From contig CAVQCN010000003.1 of the NCBI GenBank assembly GCA_963711035.1, positions 398,290 through 462,289 on the forward strand: DNA of 64,000 bases, in the 5' to 3' direction. Source of the stretch: an uncultured Chloroflexia bacterium. GTDB taxonomy: Bacteria > Chloroflexota > Dehalococcoidia > DSTF01 > WHTK01. Positions within the stretch are counted from its first letter, which is position 1; each line of letters opens with the position of its first letter. The notes beneath the pieces are model-generated. The model did no database searches. It saw nothing but the letters and a program-made list of their open reading frames with translations, and was not told where the DNA came from. Made by a program: the position numbers and the translations under genes. Below, in pieces: positions 2,627 to 12,941 of this stretch.

Positions 2627-2816
2627 CGTTGTGCTCCTCTAGTCCCCCCGAGTCAGAGACTCGACACAGTGGTTGCTCTAGCTGCTGCGCATCCCTCTCG
2701 GTCTGCTCCACTCCCGGTGGGAAGGAAGGAAAGGGGGACACCCATTCCCCCGCGTATGGCTTCCCCCCGCTACCCGCGGTTTGCCGCGGAACCCCGAACG
2801 TGTCTGACTCGTCATG

Positions 2817-3776
2817 CTAAACGTCGATCAGGACCTTGATCACGTTGTCTTCGCGGCTGGCGAACTGCCGGAAGGCTGCGTCCACGTCGTCGAACTTGTA
2901 GCGGTGCGTGACCATGTACGACAGGTCGATGCCGCCGCGCGCCGCCAGGTCGACGGCCGCCTGCACGGAGGGCACCACGTCGTTGGAGCGGCGGCTGTTG
3001 GTGACGACGATGGTCGGCAGCTTGTTGTACATCGTGAACCAGTCGAAGACGATCGGACCATCGCCGTGCGGCATGCCGAAAACGATGGCAGTGCCCTGCA
3101 GGCGCAGGATGTGAAACAGATCGTTCATGGTCTCGGCGTGGCCGCAGGCGTCGATCGCGACGTCGACCATCTCGCCCTTGGTGAGCTCGGAGACGGCTTC
3201 GACGAGGTCCTGCTTCTGGGGGTTGATGCCCGCCGTCGCTCCCAGGCTCTTCGCCACATCGAGGCGGTGGTCAACCACATCAGTGACGATGACCTCGCTG
3301 GCGCCACTGCGTACGAGCAGGTCGGTGAAGATGAGACCGATTGGGCCCTGGCCCAGCACGGCGACGCGCTTGCCAAGCACGCTGCCGGCGCGCTGCAGGG
3401 CGTAGATCACGGTGCCGACCGGCTGGCACATGACGCCGAGGTCGGGGCCGATGCTGTCCGGAATCGGTATCAGCAGCTCGGGCGGTACGGAGGAGTACTC
3501 GACCAGGCCGCCGGCGTAGGCGAGGGAGATGACGCGCTGGCCCTTCTGGAAGACGCCGTTGTAGCTTTCCTCGACGATGCCGGCGCACTCGTGGCACGGA
3601 TAGCCGGTGCGGCCGGGGTAGTCCTCTTCGGGCAGGACGCGCTCATAGGTCAGCAGGTCGCTGCCGCAGATCGAGAGGTGCTCCATGCGGATCAGCACCT
3701 CGCCCGGCTGGGCCTTGGGCATGTCGATGTCGAGAACTTCTAGCCGCTGGGGGCCTACGATGCGCGCTGCCTTCAT
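2817..3776 (-). CDS. Zn-dependent alcohol dehydrogenase, MDR family (threonine/sorbitol dehydrogenase-like)
   Basis: 319 aa. Has the CHECAG catalytic-zinc region (here CGSD...CHECAGIVEE) and a GxGxxG Rossmann motif (VLGQGPIGL). Confidence 0.8.
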   Translation of the reverse strand: MKAARIVGPQRLEVLDIDMPKAQPGEVLIRMEHLSICGSDLLTYERVLPEEDYPGRTGYPCHECAGIVEESYNGVFQKGQRVISLAYAGGLVEYSSVPPELLIPIPDSIGPDLGVMCQPVGTVIYALQRAGSVLGKRVAVLGQGPIGLIFTDLLVRSGASEVIVTDVVDHRLDVAKSLGATAGINPQKQDLVEAVSELTKGEMVDVAIDACGHAETMNDLFHILRLQGTAIVFGMPHGDGPIVFDWFTMYNKLPTIVVTNSRRSNDVVPSVQAAVDLAARGGIDLSYMVTHRYKFDDVDAAFRQFASREDNVIKVLIDV

Positions 3777-3866
3777 GAGCGTCTTCCTCTCCTCGTGCTG
3801 CTGTCTGCGTACGATGTCGCCCGCATTATAAGAGGCGGGACGGCGCCGTCGATCAGGAGGAGAGGG

Positions 3867-3997
3867 TTTAGCAGGGCGCTGAGAAACAGAGATAACGTCC
3901 TTCGCGAACCTCAGAATGAGCGTGATTCAAATTCCGCTCGTGGTGAGGCTCTCGAACCACAACTTTGATCGAGAACTGGTTTCTCAGCGCCCTGCTA
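3867..3997. repeat. Perfect 19-bp inverted repeat (TAGCAGGGCGCTGAGAAAC ... GTTTCTCAGCGCCCTGCTA) flanking a 91-bp spacer; MITE-like or long stem-loop
   Basis: Seen directly. The second arm abuts the stop codon of the selenoprotein gene. Confidence 0.6.
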
Positions 3998-4000
3998 GCG

Positions 4001-5233
4001 TTACTCGGGCCGCTTGGTGAAGGCGTTGGGGATGATCGCGGGCGGGCGAGCCTGCGGGTCCGTCTGAGCCGCGGCCAAGCGGTCGCGGACGTCGTAGAGC
4101 ACGGCGCCGAGACGCGTCTCGTGGAAGAGCCAGCGGTTCAACGTCGCCGAGTCGGGTGCGTGCTTGCCGGGCTGCATCGAGACGGCCTCGAGGTAGTAGG
4201 TCTTGAGGTCATCCGCGGCGGCGCGCAGGGCGGCCGGCACCGGCAGGCCCATAGCGGCGGGCGGCTCCACGTCGGCGCCCTTCGCGTAACTCGCGACGAA
4301 GCCTGCGAGCTGGTCGATGGCGCCGATCTCCACCTTGCTCAAGCCGAAGAGGGTGCGGTCGTGGACGTGGATGAACTCGTCATACCACGGCTTCAGCTGG
4401 CCGATCTCCGCCATGAGGCCGTCGATGGTGCGCTGGACCTCATCTTCGCTCTCGTCCACGGGCGGCAGCGGCAGCATGCAGGCCCAGTCCTCGTCGGAGT
4501 CGGCGGCGACCGGCGCGTCCTTGGGGAAGTCGTGCAGTACCGGTCCCGACGTCTCTTTCAGGGTGTCGAGCAGGGCGTGCAGCACCTCCATCTGGAACTC
4601 GGGCTCGTTCGGCGGCCCCAGAGGACGGCCCAGCTCGAACGGCACCCAGAGGGCGCGAGGCGGCTTCATCTTCTCCGTCTGCTCGCGGATCAGGCTGATA
4701 CCGGCGGTCGAGACTCCCTGCGCCTCGATGTGGTGGCTGAGCGTACCCACGGTACGCGTGCAGAGCGGTCAGACGGGTGTGAGGAGCACGACGTCGACGC
4801 CGTCCTCCTTCAACAACCTCCCTACTTCGGGGCCGGCTTCCACCAGGCGCGTGTAGTCCGTCGCGCCCATGAATGAGTAGTGCCACCGGGCCAGCGAGCC
4901 GATCTCGCCGCGCTCCAGCAGCGTGCGCAGGTGCGGCAGCGGGAAGACGACGTTGACGTCCTGCTGGAAGCCGGTGCGATCGAAGTTGATGCTGAGGTGG
5001 CTCATGATGAGCTCATCCGGGTCGATGTCGCCGGGGATGATGCGGTAGTCGGAGGCGCCGGGATTGAACCGCGCGTCCGAGCGGCGATGCAGGCCAGCCG
5101 TCGTGACGAGGGCGACGCGCGCCGTCTTGAGATCCGGGGGCGCCGGCGTCCACGGCGCCGAGTCGAACTCGGGCAGTGGCAGGCGGAGATAGCCTTCGGC
5201 GACTTCGGGGGGAAGGGACGAGAGCCTGACCAC
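4001..5233 (-). CDS. GrdB/PrdB-family selenoprotein B-like protein with in-frame UGA (Sec) at 4769-4771; GTG start with AGGAGG SD
   Basis: Track ORFs 4769..5233 and 4001..4750 lie in the same frame, separated only by a TGA and 6 codons. The joined protein reads ...KEDGVDVVLLTPV-U-PLCTRTVGT..., matching the Sec region I recall in GrdB (...AAILTST-U-GTCTRCGATM..., recalled from memory, not checked). Flanking similarity to the GrdB C-terminal half is extensive. Confidence 0.7.
4737..4763 (-). promoter_or_regulatory. Candidate bacterial SECIS hairpin downstream of the UGA
   Basis: mRNA UGA CCG CUC UGC AC-GCGUACC-GUG-GGUACGC: a 7-bp stem begins 11 nt after the UGA with a G/U-containing apical loop, plus a possible 3-bp lower stem. 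Confidence 0.5.
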
Positions 5234-5313
5234 GAGACCTCCTCAGGTGTCTTACTCAGCGACTCTACCACATGAGGCGCTGGGAAAAATACACCGCCAA
5301 CTTCGTTCCTTCC

Positions 5314-6258
5314 TCAAAACCGATCCGGATAGAGGCACTTCGCGAGCGCCTGCAGTGCCTGGACGATGTGCGGGCCGGGCTGGCTCACGAGGTCGGGATC
5401 GATAGTGCAGATGCGGTCGTTTTGCACGGCGTCGATCACGTCCCAGCCGGCGCGCGCCTTCACCGACGCTGCATCCACGCCGGCGTCCTCGTCCGCCAAC
5501 ACGATTACCTGCGGGTTGCGTTGCAGGATGACCTCGGCGGACAGCTGCGGGTACTCCTGGTCCGCGCCGGCGGCGATGTTCTGCGCCTTGAGCAGATGGT
5601 AGAGGTCGCCGATGAAGCTCTGCGGCGCTGCCGTGTAGTAGGTATTGTCGAGCTCGTGGTAGACACGCGGCCCCTGCCCGACGTCCGTGATCTTGCTGGC
5701 AAGGTCCTGGATGCCCTGCAGCATCGACATTTGGAGCTGGCCCGCCTCGTCACTGTGGCCTGTGATCCGGCCGAACAGGCCAATCTGGTCAACGACGCCA
5801 GCGACAGTCGTTGGGAGCGGCAGATACAGGACGGGGATGTCGAGCCGCTTCAACGCGTCGACCAGGCCGGACGGGTCGTACGCCGTGAAGACGAGGTCGG
5901 GCTTGTAACCGGCGATGGCCTCGACGTTGGGCTGGAACGAATCGAGCTCCGGCTTGGCGCTCGAGCCTTCCGGACAGTTGGCGTACGTGTCGACGGCGAT
6001 CAGCTGATCGCCGGCGCCGATCGCGCAGAAGATCTCGGTCGCGGCCGGCGAGAGCGAGACGATGCGCTGCGGCGTGGCGTCGAGCGTGAGCTGCCCGCCG
6101 CCCGGCAGATCGAAGACGGTTGGGGTCGCCGTGGCGGCCGGCGCCGTGGTCGTGGCGACGATGGTGGCGGTTGACGAAGTCGCCGCATGAGAGCCGCTGC
6201 TGCATCCGCCGAGCAGCAGGGCGAACAGAACGGCAAACCCGAAGATGGTGCGTTTCAT
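5314..6258 (-). CDS. ABC transporter substrate-binding lipoprotein, cobalamin/siderophore (BtuF/FecB-like, Peripla_BP_2) family
   Basis: Lipobox LLGGCSS. Sequence family typical of BtuF-like binding proteins. A cobalamin riboswitch sits upstream. Confidence 0.75.
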   Translation of the reverse strand: MKRTIFGFAVLFALLLGGCSSGSHAATSSTATIVATTTAPAATATPTVFDLPGGGQLTLDATPQRIVSLSPAATEIFCAIGAGDQLIAVDTYANCPEGSSAKPELDSFQPNVEAIAGYKPDLVFTAYDPSGLVDALKRLDIPVLYLPLPTTVAGVVDQIGLFGRITGHSDEAGQLQMSMLQGIQDLASKITDVGQGPRVYHELDNTYYTAAPQSFIGDLYHLLKAQNIAAGADQEYPQLSAEVILQRNPQVIVLADEDAGVDAASVKARAGWDVIDAVQNDRICTIDPDLVSQPGPHIVQALQALAKCLYPDRF

Positions 6259-6319
6259 GGGAGCTCCTTTCCTTGCTGGATCAGGAGCCTCATTGGCTCG
6301 ACCGCTGTGAGCCGGGCAA

Positions 6320-6545
6320 TGAAAAACCCCGGCTCGAAGCTGGTGCCGGGGCGACAGTCACCCTCGTAGGGCGAGTCTCGGTCCGGGCCTTGTACCTCGA
6401 AGGCTCCTGACTTGTTGCTAAGGGCTGGCGACCTGGCTCTCCTCCACCCGAGCGGAGGACTACAGTTGCGGGACAGCGCCGGACTTCGACCGGCTTCGCA
6501 TTTACCCTCCCCGACCTTAATCGGGACCAAGGCACCCTTGAGCGT
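6320..6545 (-). ncRNA. Cobalamin (B12) riboswitch with expression-platform intrinsic terminator
   Basis: Minus-strand RNA contains GGUGCC..., AAGCCGGUCGAAGUCCGGCGCUGUCCCGCAACUGUA (core consensus) and a B12-box-like AGCCAGGUCGCCAGCC. A terminator hairpin CCCCGGCaccagcuucgaGCCGGGG+UUUUU lies at 6322-6351, then the SD AGGAG and ATG of the binding-protein gene. Confidence 0.8.
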
Positions 6546-6649
6546 TTCTCTTCAGTTGTGAAGGTTGCTGGCCGGATGATAGGCGGCAGGCCGATCTTCG
6601 TCAATGGCCGGTCGATGCGCTACTCTCGGGGGAGCGAAACGGAGGAAGC

Positions 6650-7726
6650 ATGCAAGCCGAGCTGCCCGAAAAGCTGAACGTCCTGGTCATCATGCCCGGC
6701 GGCGAAACCACCATGGAGCGCATCCGCGCCGTGGCGCCGGACCGCCTCAACGTCGTCTCACTCTGGAACGAGCTCATCCCGGAGATCGAGCCCGACTGGC
6801 CGGAGCGCATGATGCGCCGCAACGTGGGCCAGGCGCGCCCGCCGAAGTTCACGGCCGAAGAGACCGAAGCGCTGCTCCGCGATGCGCACATCGCCCTGAT
6901 GGGCGTGCCGTTTCCCTATCACCTGGTGCACCGCGCGCCCAGCCTGATCTGGGCCCACTTCACCTTCGCGGGCATCAGCAACGTCAAGCCCAGCGACTGG
7001 TGGGGCTCGTCCGTGGTGACGACCAGCTCACGGGGCCATACGGGCGCTCGGCCCATCGCCGAGACGGCCGTCGCCGGCGCCATGATGCTGGCCAAGCGCC
7101 TCGACCTGGCGGCGCGCAATAGCACGCCGGACTTCGACCCGAATCTCGTGCCGGACATGCTGATCATCGAGGGCAAGACGATGGGCATCGTCGGCCTGGG
7201 AGGCATCGGCGGGCAGGTCGCGAAGATGTCGAAGGGCCTCGGCATGCGCGTGCTGGCGACGCGCCATTCGGCCACGACGCGCCAGAAGGACGTTGACGGC
7301 GTCGACGAGCTATTCCCCGTCTCCGAGACGAAGGAGATGCTCGCCGAGTGCGATTTCCTGGCCGTCTGCGCCATCTGGACGCCCGAGACGGAGAACATGT
7401 TCAACCGCGAGACCTTCGCGGCGATGAAGCCGGGTGCTTTCCTCCTCAACGTTGCGCGCGGCGAGCTCGTGGACGACGAGGCGCTGGTCGAGTCGCTGCG
7501 CTCAGGCCATCTCGGCGGCGCCTACCTCGACGTCTGGCCCGATGACTTCTCGCGGCCGCCGCACCCCGAGCTGCTGGCGATGGACAACGTCGTCTTCACG
7601 CCCCACATCTCGGGCCGCGGCGAGGTCTCGCACAACTTCGGCTTCGAGCTTTTCCTCGACAACCTCGGCAAGCTGCTGCACGGCGAGCCGTTGATCAACG
7701 TCGTGGACTGGGACCGCAACTACTAG
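6650..7726 (+). CDS. D-isomer-specific 2-hydroxyacid dehydrogenase family protein (NAD-binding)
   Basis: 358 aa. GxGxIGxxVA motif (GIVGLGGIGGQVA), catalytic RGE...H region, family-typical C-terminus. Confidence 0.8.
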   Translation: MQAELPEKLNVLVIMPGGETTMERIRAVAPDRLNVVSLWNELIPEIEPDWPERMMRRNVGQARPPKFTAEETEALLRDAHIALMGVPFPYHLVHRAPSLIWAHFTFAGISNVKPSDWWGSSVVTTSSRGHTGARPIAETAVAGAMMLAKRLDLAARNSTPDFDPNLVPDMLIIEGKTMGIVGLGGIGGQVAKMSKGLGMRVLATRHSATTRQKDVDGVDELFPVSETKEMLAECDFLAVCAIWTPETENMFNRETFAAMKPGAFLLNVARGELVDDEALVESLRSGHLGGAYLDVWPDDFSRPPHPELLAMDNVVFTPHISGRGEVSHNFGFELFLDNLGKLLHGEPLINVVDWDRNY

Positions 7727-7806: not shown

Positions 7807-7941
7807 GCACAACGTGTGTGGGACTACGGTCCGACCGGGATTGGTTCGTCGCTCCGCTCCTCGCAATGACGATGCCGCCGCCCTTTTGCCCCGGTGCCCC
7901 GTCGCGTATGCTCCAGAAAACGACAGAAGGACCCACCCCGA

Positions 7942-8204
7942 TGGCTGCCTACCTCGCCCGCGTCTACGTCTCCCTCAAGCCGACGGTCAACGATCCCCAG
8001 GGCCTGACCATCGCCGACGGCTTGCGCTCGCTGGGCTTTCGTGAGGTGGAGGGCGTGCGCGCTGGCAAGTACATCGAGATTCGGCTCAACGCCGCAAGCT
8101 TCGAAGCCGCGCGCCTCCAGGTCGACGCGATGTGCGACCGGATGCTGGCAAACCCAATCATCGAGTCCTACCGCTTCGAGATCGAGGAGATGGTCTCGGC
8201 CTGA
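7942..8204 (+). CDS. purS: Phosphoribosylformylglycinamidine synthase subunit PurS
   Basis: 87 aa from the internal ATG (MAAYLARVYVSLKPTVNDPQG...); classic PurS length and sequence. The track ORF is extended upstream. Confidence 0.8.
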
Positions 8205-8286
8205 GGGGATTGCATCTCACGCACTCCCGCGCGGTAGGCATGTGCCAGAAGAGAACCTCCGCGGGAAACCGTCCGACAGAGGTCCG

Positions 8287-9147
8287 TCAGGTAGTGGCGA
8301 CGAGAAATTCTTCCGCGTTGTTCGGCGGACGCAGGCCATCGGCTCGGCCGGCAAAGTAGCGTTCGGTGAGAGAGGCCGCCGAAACGTGCTCGGCGTGTCG
8401 AAAACCGGCCTCTCGGGCCAGCGTCAGTATTTCGTCCGGTGTGAAGAAGCTGATGAACGGCGTCCCGCTGGCCCGCGCGCCCTGCGCCGCACCCTGGATC
8501 CCCGGACGCGCTGCCGACTCCGCCAGCTCGAACGGCAGCAGGAACGACATGGCGAACGTCGACCCCGGCGCCAGAGTCGCAAGCTGGCGCAGCGTTGCCG
8601 CGTTCGCCTCCTTGGTCAGGTACATGCTCACGCCCGTCGACGCCACGACCGCCGGCTGCCCAGCGTCGAAGCCGGCAGCGAGCAGTCGTTCCCACCAGCC
8701 TTCGCCCGCCTCGAAGTCGACCGGCACGAAGCGCAGCCACTCCGGGACGCCGAAGCCGAGTTCGATGAGGCGCTGGCGCTTCCAGGCCTGAGGACCAGGC
8801 TCGTCCACCTCGAACAGGTGCAGGCGGGAGGCGATCTCCGGCCGTCGCTGCGCGAACGTGTCCAGACCCGCTCCGAGGATCACGTACTGGCCGACGCCAC
8901 GACCCGCCTGCTCCTCGACCAGGTCTTCAATGAAACGGGCGCGGGCCACGATGGAGGCGCGAAACTGGCTCGTCCCCTGGGGATGCATGTCGCCGCGTTG
9001 ACGCCAGCCCTCCTCCGGCGCCACCAGGGTCAGCCCGATCTCGTCCTCGATGACGTGCGGCGGCGCATCGACCTCGACGTGCAGGGCTCGCCACAGGGCG
9101 ACTCTCACGGCCGTGCTTTCGGGGGCCACCTCTTCCTTGTCAGGCAT
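8287..9147 (-). CDS. Class I SAM-dependent methyltransferase, leucine carboxyl methyltransferase / TcmP-like family
   Basis: 286 aa. VILGAGLDT SAM-binding motif. Family typical of the Mycobacterium-like 'putative S-adenosyl-L-methionine-dependent methyltransferase' (LCM family). Confidence 0.7.
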   Translation of the reverse strand: MPDKEEVAPESTAVRVALWRALHVEVDAPPHVIEDEIGLTLVAPEEGWRQRGDMHPQGTSQFRASIVARARFIEDLVEEQAGRGVGQYVILGAGLDTFAQRRPEIASRLHLFEVDEPGPQAWKRQRLIELGFGVPEWLRFVPVDFEAGEGWWERLLAAGFDAGQPAVVASTGVSMYLTKEANAATLRQLATLAPGSTFAMSFLLPFELAESAARPGIQGAAQGARASGTPFISFFTPDEILTLAREAGFRHAEHVSAASLTERYFAGRADGLRPPNNAEEFLVATT

Positions 9148-9511
9148 GATGCTGGCCTCCGGAACCGTCCGTCTTACCCGGCGCCTGCAGGTTCCAGAGG
9201 TGCCCGTCGGGGTCGCGGACGATCATTTCTCTGGTTCCGTAATGGGTGTCCTCGAACGGCGTCACCACCTCGATGGCGGAGTCGGGACGAAACGCGGCAG
9301 CATCCGGCACCTTCAGGACGATCTGCATCCGCGTCTCCTGGTTTTCGGGCACTTCGGCGATGAAGACGTACGGGCCGTCGCCGTTCTTGAGCTGACCGGA
9401 GTCATGGTCGGTCTCGAACTCCAACTCGAAGCCCAGCGCCTGAAAGAACTTTGCTGCCTTGCCCCAGTTGTGAGTCTCCAGGAACACGGCCTCAATGCCC
9501 TCGGTCGTCAT
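9140..9511 (-). CDS. VOC (glyoxalase/bleomycin-resistance) family protein
   Basis: 123 aa with a VOC-fold sequence pattern. Overlaps its neighbours by 8 nt and 4 nt, so it is operonic. Confidence 0.65.
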
Positions 9512-9693
9512 GTCCTCTCTCCTTCTTCAGACGATTCCTGCTGCTTCCTGTGGGTGTCGTCGAGGTAGGCGCGCAGCGCATCGGCAACCAATGCCGAGAG
9601 GGACAGACCCGACTCGATGGAGTAGTGCTTGACCTGCTTGATCAGACTGATCGGCAGGTACACGTTGAACTGCTTGACCTCTTCGTCACTCAC
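9508..9693 (-). CDS. Ribbon-helix-helix (CopG-like) small DNA-binding protein
   Basis: 61 aa; [37 protein letters not shown] is RHH-like. Confidence 0.5.
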
Positions 9694-9784
9694 GGCGCTA
9701 GTATGCTAGCAAACTAGCTTGACGGCAAGCAACGCCCTTGGAGGCCGATTCTCCATTCAATCCGAACGGTAGAACGCCGGTTCC

Positions 9785-10384
9785 CTACCCGAGCGCTTCT
9801 TTCGTGCTCGGCGTCTGGCCGGCGCGGCGCGGGTCGATGCGCGTGGCGTTGCAGAGGGCGCGCCCCAGCGCTTTCGCCATCGCCTCGGCTTTGTGGTGGT
9901 CGTTGACGCCGGCGAGGATGCGCGCGTGCAGGTTGAAGCGGCCCTCGTCTGCCAGCGACTGCAGGAAGTGCTCGACGAGGTCGCAGGGCAGCTCGCCGAC
10001 GCTGACGCCGGACCACGAGACGCCGATCACGGCGTAGCCGCGGCCTGAGAGGTCGACGGCCACCTGCGCCAGAGCTTCGTCCAGCGGCACGAGCGCGTCG
10101 GCCATGCGCACGATGCCGCGGCCGTCGCCGACCGCCGCGGCCAGCGACCGCCCCAGGGCAATGCCAACGTCTTCGGTCGTGTGGTGCGGGTCGATGTGCA
10201 GGTCGCCGGTGGCCTTGACGCTGATGTCAAAGATGCCGTGGCGCGCGATCTGCGAGACGATATGGTCGAGCATGCCGATGCCCGTCGAGATGTCGGCCTG
10301 GCCGCTGCCGTCCAGGTCCCAGGTGACCTCGACGCTGGTCTCGCGCGTCTCGCGTTTGTAGGTGCCGGTGCGTTCTGATGCCAT
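9785..10384 (-). CDS. hisB: Imidazoleglycerol-phosphate dehydratase
   Basis: 199 aa; conserved HisB motifs (TRETSVEV, DPHHTTED, GINDHH). Confidence 0.9.
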   Translation of the reverse strand: MASERTGTYKRETRETSVEVTWDLDGSGQADISTGIGMLDHIVSQIARHGIFDISVKATGDLHIDPHHTTEDVGIALGRSLAAAVGDGRGIVRMADALVPLDEALAQVAVDLSGRGYAVIGVSWSGVSVGELPCDLVEHFLQSLADEGRFNLHARILAGVNDHHKAEAMAKALGRALCNATRIDPRRAGQTPSTKEALG

Positions 10385-10435
10385 AGTCGTACTAGAGTCG
10401 CCGTACGGGCGCGAAAACGCAATCGGTCATTTCGC

Positions 10436-11545
10436 CTAATACCCTGCCCTGACGCTGGCGACAGCCTCGCGCAGGGCGGCAAGCACACGGTCCGTCTGCT
10501 CGGGCCGGCCAACGCTGAAGCGCAGGTGGTTCTGCAGTAGCGGCGTATCGAAGTAGCGCACCATGATGCCTCGATCCATCAGCGCCGTCTGCAGCCGCTT
10601 CGCCTCGACGCCGTCGATGCGGCAGAGGATGAAGTTAGCGCGTGACGGATACACCGTGAACCCGGTCAGCAGCGCCAGCCCCTCCGCCAGGCGCTCGCGC
10701 TCGGTCTGCACCGCCGCGACGCGCTCCTGCAGCAGCGCCAGGTCTTCGAAGCTGGCCAGGGTCGCCACTTCGGCCGCGACGTTGATGCTGTAGGGCTGCT
10801 TGATGCGCATCGCGATCTCGGCGACGGCCGGATCGCAGATCATGTAGCCGATGCGCAGACCGGCGAGGCCTGCCCACTTGCTCAGCGTACGGATGATGAT
10901 CAGGTTTGAGCGCTCTCGTACCAGGTTGACGTAGCTCTCACCGGCGTACTCGGCGTAAGCCTCGTCGACCACGACAGGCAGGCCGGTGGCGAGCAGCGCC
11001 TCCAGCTCCTGACGAGTCAGCAGGTTGCCGGTCGGGTTGTTGGGTGAGACGGCGAAGATCAGGCGTGTGCCCTGCGCCGCATCGAGCGACGCCTCGATGT
11101 CCAGCGCGAAGTCCTCGCGGCGCGTGACGTGAACCGCCTCCTGGCCCAGCGTGCCGGCGAGGAAGGAGTACATGCCGAACGTGGGCGGGAAGTCGAGCAG
11201 CGCCTGTCCGGGGCCGACGAAGAGGCGGCAGCAGAGCTCGATGAGCTCATCGCTGCCCGCGCCGGGCACGATCCACTCGGGGCCGTAGCCAACATAACGG
11301 CCCACAACCTCCCGCAGCCGCATCTGCTCCGGATCGGGGTAGATGTGGTAGCTGCGGTAGGCCGCCAGCGCTTCGAGCGCCTTCGGGGCCGGACCGTAGG
11401 GGTTCTCGTTGGCGTCCAGCTTGTCGATGCGCTCTACCGACACACCCAGGCGCGAGGCGAGCGCCTCCGGCGGCTGAACGGGTACGTAGGGCGGCGCCGA
11501 CAGTAGATGCGGCTGTACGAGATCGAGGAGACGGTCCGAGCTCAT
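10436..11545 (-). CDS. hisC: Histidinol-phosphate aminotransferase
   Basis: 369 aa; class II aminotransferase (LDANENPYGP, KW pyridoxal-lysine region). Confidence 0.9.
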   Translation of the reverse strand: MSSDRLLDLVQPHLLSAPPYVPVQPPEALASRLGVSVERIDKLDANENPYGPAPKALEALAAYRSYHIYPDPEQMRLREVVGRYVGYGPEWIVPGAGSDELIELCCRLFVGPGQALLDFPPTFGMYSFLAGTLGQEAVHVTRREDFALDIEASLDAAQGTRLIFAVSPNNPTGNLLTRQELEALLATGLPVVVDEAYAEYAGESYVNLVRERSNLIIIRTLSKWAGLAGLRIGYMICDPAVAEIAMRIKQPYSINVAAEVATLASFEDLALLQERVAAVQTERERLAEGLALLTGFTVYPSRANFILCRIDGVEAKRLQTALMDRGIMVRYFDTPLLQNHLRFSVGRPEQTDRVLAALREAVASVRAGY

Positions 11546-12871
11546 TGCGGCAGGCGCTCTTCGATGGCGCGCGCGTGGCCGACGAAGCCCTCGGCGCGGG
11601 CGATGACGGCGCCGGCCGGGCCGAGGTCGAAGACGCCATCGGAGCTGAGGTCGATGACGGTGCTGAACTTGAGGAAGTCCTGCACGCTGAGCGGCGACGC
11701 GAAGCGCGCGGCGCCGCCCGTCGGCATGACGTGGCTGGGTCCCGCCGTGTAGTCGCCGATCGCTTCCGGCGACCCGTCGCCGATGAAGACGCCGCCGGCG
11801 TTGCGCACCAGGCCTGCCAAGCGGTGCGCGTCTTGCGCCAGGATGCAGAGGTGCTCGGGCGCGTACTCGCTGGCCAGCTCGACCGCCTCTTCGATGGTCG
11901 CGGCCACGACGGCTCCGCCACGATTGGCGAAGGCGGCACTGGCCACATTGCGTCGCGGCAGCACGGCAATGCGCTGCTCCAGCTCGGCGGCGACGTTGTC
12001 AGCCAGCTCCCGCGAGTTCGTTATGAAGATGGGCGAGGCGAGCTCGTCGTGCTCTGCCTGCGCCAGCAAGTCGGCGGCGCACAGCGCCGGGTCGGCCGTC
12101 TCGTCCGCCACGACCACCGTCTCCGTGGGGCCGTAGAGCGAATCGATGCCCACATCGCCGAAGACGGCGCGCTTGGCCAGCGTCACAAAGATGTTGCCGG
12201 GTCCGCAGAATCTTGTCGACGCGCGGGAAGCTCTCCGTGCCGTAGGCGAGCGCCGCGACGGCCTGGGCGCCGCTGGCCGCGAAGACGCGGTCGGCGCCGG
12301 CCATGGCGGCTGCTGCCAGCTTGACCGGCGGCACGACGCCGTCCGGCCCCGCCGGGCTGACCAGGACGAGGTTCTCGACGCCGGCGACCTTGGCCGGGAT
12401 CAGCGTGTGCAAGACGGAGGACGGGTACACCGTCAAAGTGCCGGGGGCGTAGACGCCGACGTTGCGGATGGCGCGCACCTGCACGCCCAGGCCCTCGTCG
12501 ACGTAGGAGGCGAGCACGCGGCGCATCTGCCCCTCGTGGTAGCGGCGCACGCGGCCGGCCGCGAACTCCAGCGCGTCGCGCAGCTGCGGCTCGATGGCGT
12601 CGACGGCGGCCTCGACCTCGGCGCGCGGGATCTCGAAGCGCGGGTACGGGAAGCCATCGAAGACCTCGCAGTAGCGGCGCACGGCCGCGTCACCCTCGCG
12701 ACGCACATCGGCGATGATGCGCTGCACGCTCTGGCCAGCGGTAAGCTCCTCGCCAAAGACGGCCGCGGTCATCGAGCGGCCCGCTTCGCCCAGCTCAAGC
12801 TCGGATGCTGCGCCGCGGCGCAGGATGGTGCGTCGTGCTTCGTCGGCGCCGACGAAGATACGCAGCGTCAT
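11542..12871 (-). CDS. hisD: Histidinol dehydrogenase, interrupted by an apparent 1-nt insertion frameshift near 12196-12210
   Basis: Track ORFs 11999..12871 (N-part, ...AQAVAALAYGTESFPRVDKI) and 11542..12186 (C-part, TLAKRAVFGDVGID...) are adjacent frames. The expected ...DKI(L)GPGNIFVTLAKR... is recovered by removing one base from attctgCggaccc. Confidence 0.8.
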
Positions 12872-12941
12872 AGCGCGCCGCCATCTCGAACGGCGCAGGC
12901 GCTGGTCGGAGCCGGGCCTGGTCGTAGCGCTGTGATAGGGC

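Follow-up and report, generated by a model that had tools for sequence, protein, structure and literature searches.

We analysed a 64,000-nucleotide (nt) stretch (64 kb, hereafter the window) of contig CAVQCN010000003.1 from an uncultured Chloroflexia bacterium of the Dehalococcoidia lineage. It contains a cobalamin (B12) riboswitch followed by a gene for a BtuF-like binding lipoprotein (btuF), a selenoprotein gene and a gene for a zinc-dependent dehydrogenase of the alcohol dehydrogenase (ADH) type. A preliminary description of this DNA had read these elements as an unusual operon under riboswitch control. Our data rather point to three adjacent, separately controlled transcription units on the minus strand, a reading to which we give a probability of about 0.75. 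Riboswitch control was retained for BtuF, for which the module was seen at all nine orthologous loci. It did not hold for an operon extending to the selenoprotein and ADH genes, since these genes show promoter-like signals of their own and the association is seen at 2 of 80 selenoprotein loci. The adjacency of btuF and the selenoprotein gene most likely reflects a lineage-specific gene order, and the apparent operon would most likely be an accident of it. All elements of the locus are on the minus strand and all coordinates are positions within the window. The first unit comprises the following features:

6576..6604, minus strand: predicted sigma-70-like promoter of the riboswitch-btuF unit (TTGACG, 17 nt, TATCAT; consensus scan)
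6406..6554, minus strand: cobalamin riboswitch aptamer (RF00174; cmscan match)
6322..6405, minus strand: expression platform, read directly from the sequence, with a terminator-like site also found in the scan
6405..6381, minus strand: conserved post-aptamer element AGCCUUCGAGG..GGCCCGGAC, kept in alignments A1 and A9
6351..6327, minus strand: predicted intrinsic terminator CCCCGG-loop-CCGGGG, with the U-tract UUUUU at 6326..6322 (alignments A1 and A9)
5314..6258, minus strand: gene for the BtuF-like, putatively corrinoid-binding lipoprotein (314 aa; lipobox LLGGC, Thr/Ala-rich linker, Peripla_BP_2)

The cobalamin riboswitch is genuine as judged from its score, its core, its position in the leader and its expression platform. 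RF00174 matches the aptamer over the full model (positions 1-189) with 40.6 bits compared to a gathering score of 31.5 (E 8e-7), in agreement with the well-formed B12 riboswitch that had been proposed. Its position was confirmed as well, except that the aptamer reaches 6554 and hence extends 9 nt past the end at 6545 given before. The B12 box (GAGCCAGG..GCC) and the GCCGGU..CCGGC / CCCGCAACUGUA segments are found in the cmscan alignment and form invariant columns in nine loci (A9). The P6 region is short, consisting of one hairpin of 13 nt compared to 62 model positions. From the end of the aptamer to the start of btuF there are 148 nt, and folding of the 166-nt leader beats shuffled sequences with a z-score of -3.29. 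The terminator-type expression platform of the preliminary description is likewise seen, as a hairpin with U-tract (6351..6322) that is kept in relatives: CCCCGG..CCGGGG and the five U are present in the window and in the loci L001, L025 and L083, and are weaker in other loci. L001 and L025 have the promoter in the same place. Corrinoid binding and repression by the riboswitch are predicted.

A btuF riboswitch and an L5-L13 kissing loop have been described, 37 of 38 functional riboswitches were reported to use a terminator-type platform, and such platforms are the norm for riboswitches ahead of btuF (PMC9600662). The present element resembles that of Bacillus subtilis btuFCDR in the aptamer core with B12 box, the location in the 5’ leader of a BtuF-family gene and the platform with intrinsic terminator. 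It differs by its P6, which is a single short hairpin, and by a btuF that stands alone, with no btuCD in the window. An L5-L13 kissing loop was considered for the window and rejected, as L5 varies in relatives and no compensating change is seen. L5 reads UCGAAGU (6486-6480) in the window and UCAAAGU or UCAAAUU in relatives; in the window it is complementary to CUUCGA, which occurs at 6402-6397 in the post-aptamer element and at 6339-6334 in the terminator loop. Riboswitch and leader are moreover overlapped by an open reading frame (ORF) of 91 aa on the minus strand (6255-6530), with an atypical GC content of the three codon positions (0.62/0.57/0.70). This ORF very probably does not represent a gene, and its tblastn matches in L001 and L025 are explained by conservation of the RNA.

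The protein encoded behind the riboswitch matches PF01497 (Peripla_BP_2, the fold of class III periplasmic binding proteins) with 115.5 bits and starts with a lipoprotein signal (MKRTIFGFAVLFALLLGGC). It does not reach the cutoff of the BtuF equivalog NF002894 (83.5 bits vs 234), and its top NCBIfam match is TIGR04281, again below cutoff (153 bits vs 325). Among its relatives in the PDB are B12-, haem- and siderophore-binding proteins; 5ysc, 1n2z and 4dbl belong to these relatives, and 5ysc and 1n2z bind B12. Scanning metagenomes with BtuF yielded a single relative with 27% identity. The lone BtuF/FecB-family lipoprotein without adjoining btuCD, as previously claimed, was found again; neither a FecCD permease nor a matching ATP-binding cassette (ABC) ATPase was detected in the entire window by a screen for ORFs, transmembrane helices and Walker motifs with subsequent Pfam analysis of the candidates. 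Despite the missed equivalog cutoff, a corrinoid role is supported because a riboswitch as well as companions for corrinoid transport or salvage are present at orthologue loci. The B12 assignment thus rests on genomic context, and in annotation btuF may be named a gene for a riboswitch-controlled, putative corrinoid-binding protein.

To define what belongs to the riboswitch, BtuF orthologues (55-61% identity) were compared at nine loci, namely six looked up on long contigs (L082-L087), L001, L025 and the window. An RF00174 match lies upstream of btuF in all nine; the aptamers of the eight orthologues score 34.8-56.8 bits, and those of L082-L087 are located 150-330 nt upstream of btuF. The genes that follow are far less constant. 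In L082 and L086 nothing follows but a convergent P-type ATPase gene, which makes riboswitch-btuF monocistronic there. In L001, L083 and the more distant L084 btuF is followed by cobT-cobS-cobU, in L085 by FecCD and ABC_tran and then methylmalonyl-CoA mutase, and in L087 by CbiZ-CobD-aminotransferase-CobQ-FecCD. Altogether cob, cbi or btu genes adjoin five of the eight orthologues. The selenoprotein gene does not occur at L082 and L084-L087. Since the genes behind btuF vary and the riboswitch is constant, the conserved module consists of riboswitch and btuF, and judged from these loci a lone riboswitch-controlled btuF appears to be a recurrent arrangement in this class. Orthologous BtuF and riboswitch also head corrinoid salvage operons of Dehalococcoidia, with cobT-cobS-cobU or cbiZ (L001, L083, L084 and L087). 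In contrast to those, the window lost, or never had, cob genes at this site: tblastn gave no match to cobT, cobS or cobU in the window, and no remnants of them were found there or in the 200-nt spacer of L025.

The second unit is formed by the selenoprotein gene and the region in front of it:

5260..5295, minus strand: promoter/operator-like block before the selenoprotein gene (alignment A2 of the window, L001 and L025)
4001..5233, minus strand: selenoprotein gene (410 codons; N-terminal PrdB/GrdB-like alpha/beta domain, C-terminal helical domain of ~180 aa)
4769..4771, minus strand: UGA selenocysteine (Sec) codon, from translation and homologue alignment (motif PV-U-PLC-T)
4741..4757, minus strand: predicted selenocysteine insertion sequence (SECIS) hairpin GCGUACC-GUG-GGUACGC, starting 11 nt after the UGA

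The gap between btuF and the selenoprotein gene measures 80 nt (5313..5234). As stated in the preliminary description, both genes are on the same strand and the second has a strong Shine-Dalgarno (SD) sequence, GAGGAGG, 5 nt upstream of its GTG start codon at 5233. A block of ~36 nt within this gap, GGTGTATTTTT..CCAGCG..C.T.TGnTAGAGTCG, is conserved in A2, with the surrounding spacer being unaligned. The block includes two TAnnnT boxes: GGTGTATTTTT holds TATTTT, and TGGTAGAGTCG represents an extended -10-like TGnTAGAGT with TAGAGT at 5267..5262. It is kept whichever gene is located upstream, be it btuF (window, L025) or cobU (L001). Moreover, L029 and L002 carry its first half, (A/G)GTGTAyWTTWTCCAG, just ahead of the start codon; there the selenoprotein gene is divergent from selD (101-nt spacer) and from a 608-aa ORF, respectively. 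We infer that the block acts as promoter or operator of the selenoprotein gene. Among the findings named beforehand as speaking against the operon was an independent promoter located between 5234 and 5313, and the comparative evidence for the block at 5295..5260 provides such a signal.

Comparison of orthologous loci, also proposed as a check of the operon, argues against it as well. In L001 and L083 the order is riboswitch-btuF-cobT-cobS-cobU-selenoprotein-ADH, so that three genes separate btuF from the selenoprotein gene; these three are not present at this place in the window and L025. L001 and L025 are sisters with 75-82% protein identity, and the window is their outgroup (56-74%). All three are collinear over >13 kb, a stretch that takes in hisG, an aminotransferase gene and a gene of the major facilitator superfamily (MFS). 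Because this collinearity concerns the closest relatives, the adjacency represents inherited gene order and not recurrent clustering.

A wider comparison was based on homologues of the selenoprotein from a scan of one genome per GTDB species, which gave 80 loci with 44-63% identity. The hosts are Dehalococcoidia and other Chloroflexota, Acidimicrobiales and metagenome-assembled genomes (MAGs) of marine Pseudomonadales, from marine and soil habitats. A BtuF-like gene, a divergent 2-hydroxyacid dehydrogenase gene and an ADH gene near the selenoprotein gene were found by tblastn exclusively in L001 and L025. The same two loci are the only ones with a cobalamin riboswitch within the fetched flanks, all 80 having been scanned with Rfam. 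A link of the selenoprotein to corrinoids, or its repression by B12, as considered in the preliminary description, is hence not supported, as riboswitch or btuF occur at 2 of 80 loci and both belong to one collinear lineage. Search for any other constant partner gene was negative, too: when 882 ORFs of 81 loci were clustered and 106 immediate neighbours scanned with Pfam, the neighbours fell into 110 Pfam families, no family occurred in >6 loci, and the commonest, DUF1326, was found 6 times. This lack of association across genomes, like the elements and their conservation, is a direct observation.

The third unit is located further downstream:

3869..3997, minus strand: window-specific hairpin insertion (129 nt, 19-bp perfect stem, ~90-nt structured interior)
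3825..3852, minus strand: predicted sigma-70-like ADH promoter (TCGACG, 16 nt, TATAAT; consensus scan)
2817..3776, minus strand: gene for the zinc-dependent medium-chain dehydrogenase (319 aa; PF00107, PF08240)
2733..2751, minus strand: terminator-like hairpin after the ADH gene (scan)

The ADH gene that had been described behind the selenoprotein gene is real and on the same strand, but it follows after a gap of 224 nt rather than directly. The protein is not a Tdh equivalog (TIGR00692, 137.9 bits vs a cutoff of 458). Its promoter is conserved in position in three genomes, with TCGACG in the window or TTGAGG in L001 and L025, a distance of 16 nt and TATAATGCG. The hairpin insertion begins 3 nt after the selenoprotein stop codon. 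Its arms, TAGCAGGGCGCTGAGAAAC and GTTTCTCAGCGCCCTGCTA, are found nowhere else in the window, its fold is markedly stable (z -4.7), and the spacers of L001 and L025 do not contain it. Either a small inserted element or a transcript end lacking a U-tract could account for it.

As to the nature of the second gene, the sequence features indicate a real selenoprotein. Every one of the 80 homologous loci shows TGA at the corresponding codon, within the motif P-[VI]-U-P-x-C-[TS], and full-length homologues from protein databases have Cys at this position (alignment A5). In the SECIS hairpin 93.9% of the alignment cells are paired, and both sides have changed in four of the six pairs (alignment A4); the apical loop has an invariant G and U. 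None of 500 shuffles reached the observed covariation score, and controls slid along the alignment were 37-70% paired. The stem overlaps the coding sequence, so that part of the covariation signal is common with protein constraint; despite this overlap the pattern is that expected of a bacterial SECIS. The ORFs 5233..4772 and 4750..4001 should be merged into one selenoprotein gene in annotation. In L025 the frame of the gene shifts at 6978-6989, near codons 327-331, leaving the two ORFs 6481..7023 and 6893..7228; the MAG has either a pseudogene or an error of assembly at this point.

The family assignment is less straightforward. PF07355 (GRDB domain) is matched with 43 bits vs 22, the match being limited to positions 206-345 of the 347 in the model. 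Cutoffs of equivalogs and subfamilies are not reached for PrdB (TIGR04483, 122.9 vs 300), TIGR01918 (53.4 vs 65.45) and GrdB (TIGR01917, 45.1 vs 602). No PrdA or GrdA/GrdE/GrdC/GrdD partner appeared in the top 25 of the 110 Pfam families seen for the 106 nearest neighbours, or beside the gene in the window. Because of the failed cutoffs and the lack of partner subunit genes at the loci we use the name PrdB-like and not PrdB. The protein resembles PrdB of D-proline reductase and GrdB of glycine reductase in its homologous alpha/beta domain, its Sec in a UxxC motif and the SECIS directly downstream. It differs from them in the extra helical C-terminal domain of ~180 aa and in scores far below the equivalog cutoffs. 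Moreover, its hosts belong to the Chloroflexota, Acidimicrobiia and marine Gammaproteobacteria rather than to the Stickland-fermenting clostridia.

A likeness also exists to the ‘proline reductase PrdB’ family of marine metagenomes, as judged from relation to pfam07355, UxxC motif and habitat. That family ranked third among the selenoprotein families of the Sargasso Sea with 42 genes and 1 Cys homologue (PMC1088965), and was again among the top families in the GOS (Global Ocean Sampling) survey with 235 Sec and 110 Cys forms (PMC2398784). Both surveys call the family proline reductase without discussing a partner subunit, and PrdA is unmentioned in the earlier one (PMC1088965, PMC2398784). By these features the selenoprotein matches a stand-alone member of this ‘PrdB’ family, which has been seen in marine metagenomes since 2005.

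Structure prediction was evaluated with the Cys homologue P0004. The AlphaFold model (pLDDT, the predicted local distance difference test, 88.6; pTM, the predicted template modelling score, 0.89) places the U/C-P-x-C motif between a beta-strand and the N-terminus of a helix, and the last ~180 aa form the helical C-terminal domain. Foldseek found no similar solved structure in the PDB at E<=1e-3. The top matches of the model are photocobilins, which bind B12 and biliverdin (8j2y, E 2.7e-3, template modelling (TM) score 0.25-0.30). A B12-binding fold was rejected, as these matches are weak and not backed by the sequence-profile search: profiles of PDB chains matched only the CPYC active-site region of glutaredoxin, without significance (E about 0.5). 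True proline and glycine reductases require a pyruvoyl partner. For the present protein the chemistry would most likely be a selenol/thiol redox cycle without such a partner.

Several points weigh against three separate units. The block in front of the selenoprotein gene has no recognisable -35 hexamer, which is why the consensus promoter scan did not flag it. Neither an intrinsic terminator nor significant structure was found in the 80-nt junction (fold of 5345..5225, z +0.23; scan), so that of the two junction signals named in the preliminary description the promoter-like one was found and the terminator was not. In the same way, scans detected no terminator-like site between btuF and the selenoprotein gene in L025 or between cobU and the selenoprotein gene in L001. 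Hence transcripts that escape the riboswitch terminator may enter the selenoprotein gene. Furthermore, the same gene order persists in four genomes with proteins of 56-82% identity. Together with the shared strand, the short gap and the strong SD sequence, the unstructured and terminator-free junction would suit a read-through operon, in which transcripts made in the ON state of the riboswitch proceed into the selenoprotein gene and may reach the hairpin at 3997..3869. Read-through would then add a B12-responsive share on top of the gene’s own promoter, as a by-product of gene order and not as a functional link. We regard such an operon as unlikely. A conserved promoter-like block lies right inside the junction, the three cob genes intervene in L001 and L083, and 78 of the 80 loci have neither riboswitch nor btuF, which indicates that the family as a whole needs no such control.

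Functional coupling would go further. Here the PrdB-like selenoprotein would take part in corrinoid metabolism, for instance as a reductase of salvage or remodelling, or B12 would repress it because the protein is dispensable when B12 is present. What speaks for it is the position of the gene directly after btuF-cobT-cobS-cobU in L001 and L083, a lone cobT as divergent neighbour in L039, and the photocobilins as top, albeit weak, Foldseek matches. On the other hand, tblastn found no relative of btuF, cobT, cobS or cobU in the 80 loci outside L001, L025 and L039, the neighbour families are heterogeneous, and L039 has no riboswitch. The structural hint is opposed by the absence of any Foldseek match at E 1e-3, by a PDB profile search without a match to a B12 domain and by strand 1 not being followed by a conserved His of the B12-binding kind in this family (A5). 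Five BtuF orthologue loci (L082, L084-L087) moreover do without the selenoprotein. Such coupling is therefore highly improbable in our view. Much the same low standing is given to a specific version, in which the selenoprotein is tied to corrinoid salvage by read-through from btuF (or btuF-cobTSU in the L001 lineage) and acts as a reductase on a corrinoid or lower-ligand intermediate.

The reading as three separately controlled units leads to the following model, in which promoter activity, termination, ligand and actual transcripts are predicted from sequence. The promoter at 6604..6576 would drive a canonical cobalamin OFF-riboswitch. As in characterised btuF riboswitches, binding of corrinoid would let the terminator at 6351..6322 form and transcription would stop before btuF. 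When corrinoids are scarce, the anchored BtuF-like lipoprotein would be made and would pass corrinoids to an ABC importer encoded elsewhere. The selenoprotein gene would probably be expressed mainly from its own conserved element at 5295..5260, with the UGA at 4771..4769 being read through by means of the SECIS at 4757..4741. The ADH gene, finally, would be transcribed from its own sigma-70-like promoter at 3852..3825.

Some further observations concern the surroundings of the locus and of its homologues. Between the 2-hydroxyacid dehydrogenase gene and hisG (7818-12900) the window contains ~5 kb that are rearranged or inserted with respect to L025 (1-3300) and L001, including a gene of the leucine carboxyl methyltransferase family (8287..9147). 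In L039, a MAG of the Acidimicrobiales, the lone cobT next to the selenoprotein gene (DBI_PRT, 4845-6185, minus strand) is a single case and treated as chance; two genes downstream this locus carries a gene of the ornithine cyclodeaminase family (8645-9679). A tRNA-Sec gene was found within a few kb of the PrdB-like gene in several loci of Chloroflexota and Gammaproteobacteria:

L003, 2658-2750: tRNA-Sec
L030, 2724-2816: tRNA-Sec
L014, 12004-12097: tRNA-Sec
L029, 2781-2873: tRNA-Sec
L071, 7353-7441: tRNA-Sec

As selB and selD are also near in L014, L029 and L030, the decoding machinery is clustered with the selenoprotein gene in those loci. The Rfam scan detected no tRNA-Sec in the window. Copies from Acidimicrobiia (L038, L040, L042, L044-L046, L049, L052, L059, L068 and L069) show TACAAT/TAGAAT boxes 7-12 nt upstream of the selenoprotein ATG, ending ~7 nt before the start, which suggests leaderless mRNAs with own promoters in these copies.

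Neighbourhoods of PrdB-like selenoproteins are too varied for assigning a pathway from context, and the locus does not advance the role of these abundant, partner-less proteins in Chloroflexota, Acidimicrobiia and marine Gammaproteobacteria. If a tie to corrinoids were nevertheless true, it would be the first functional handle on a very abundant, uncharacterised marine selenoprotein family. Riboswitch and btuF are textbook, and the locus contains no system of a new kind. The case cautions that adjacency on the same strand behind a riboswitch does not equal an operon. Taken together, the comparative data separate a standard BtuF unit, predicted to be repressed by B12, from the two genes next to it.

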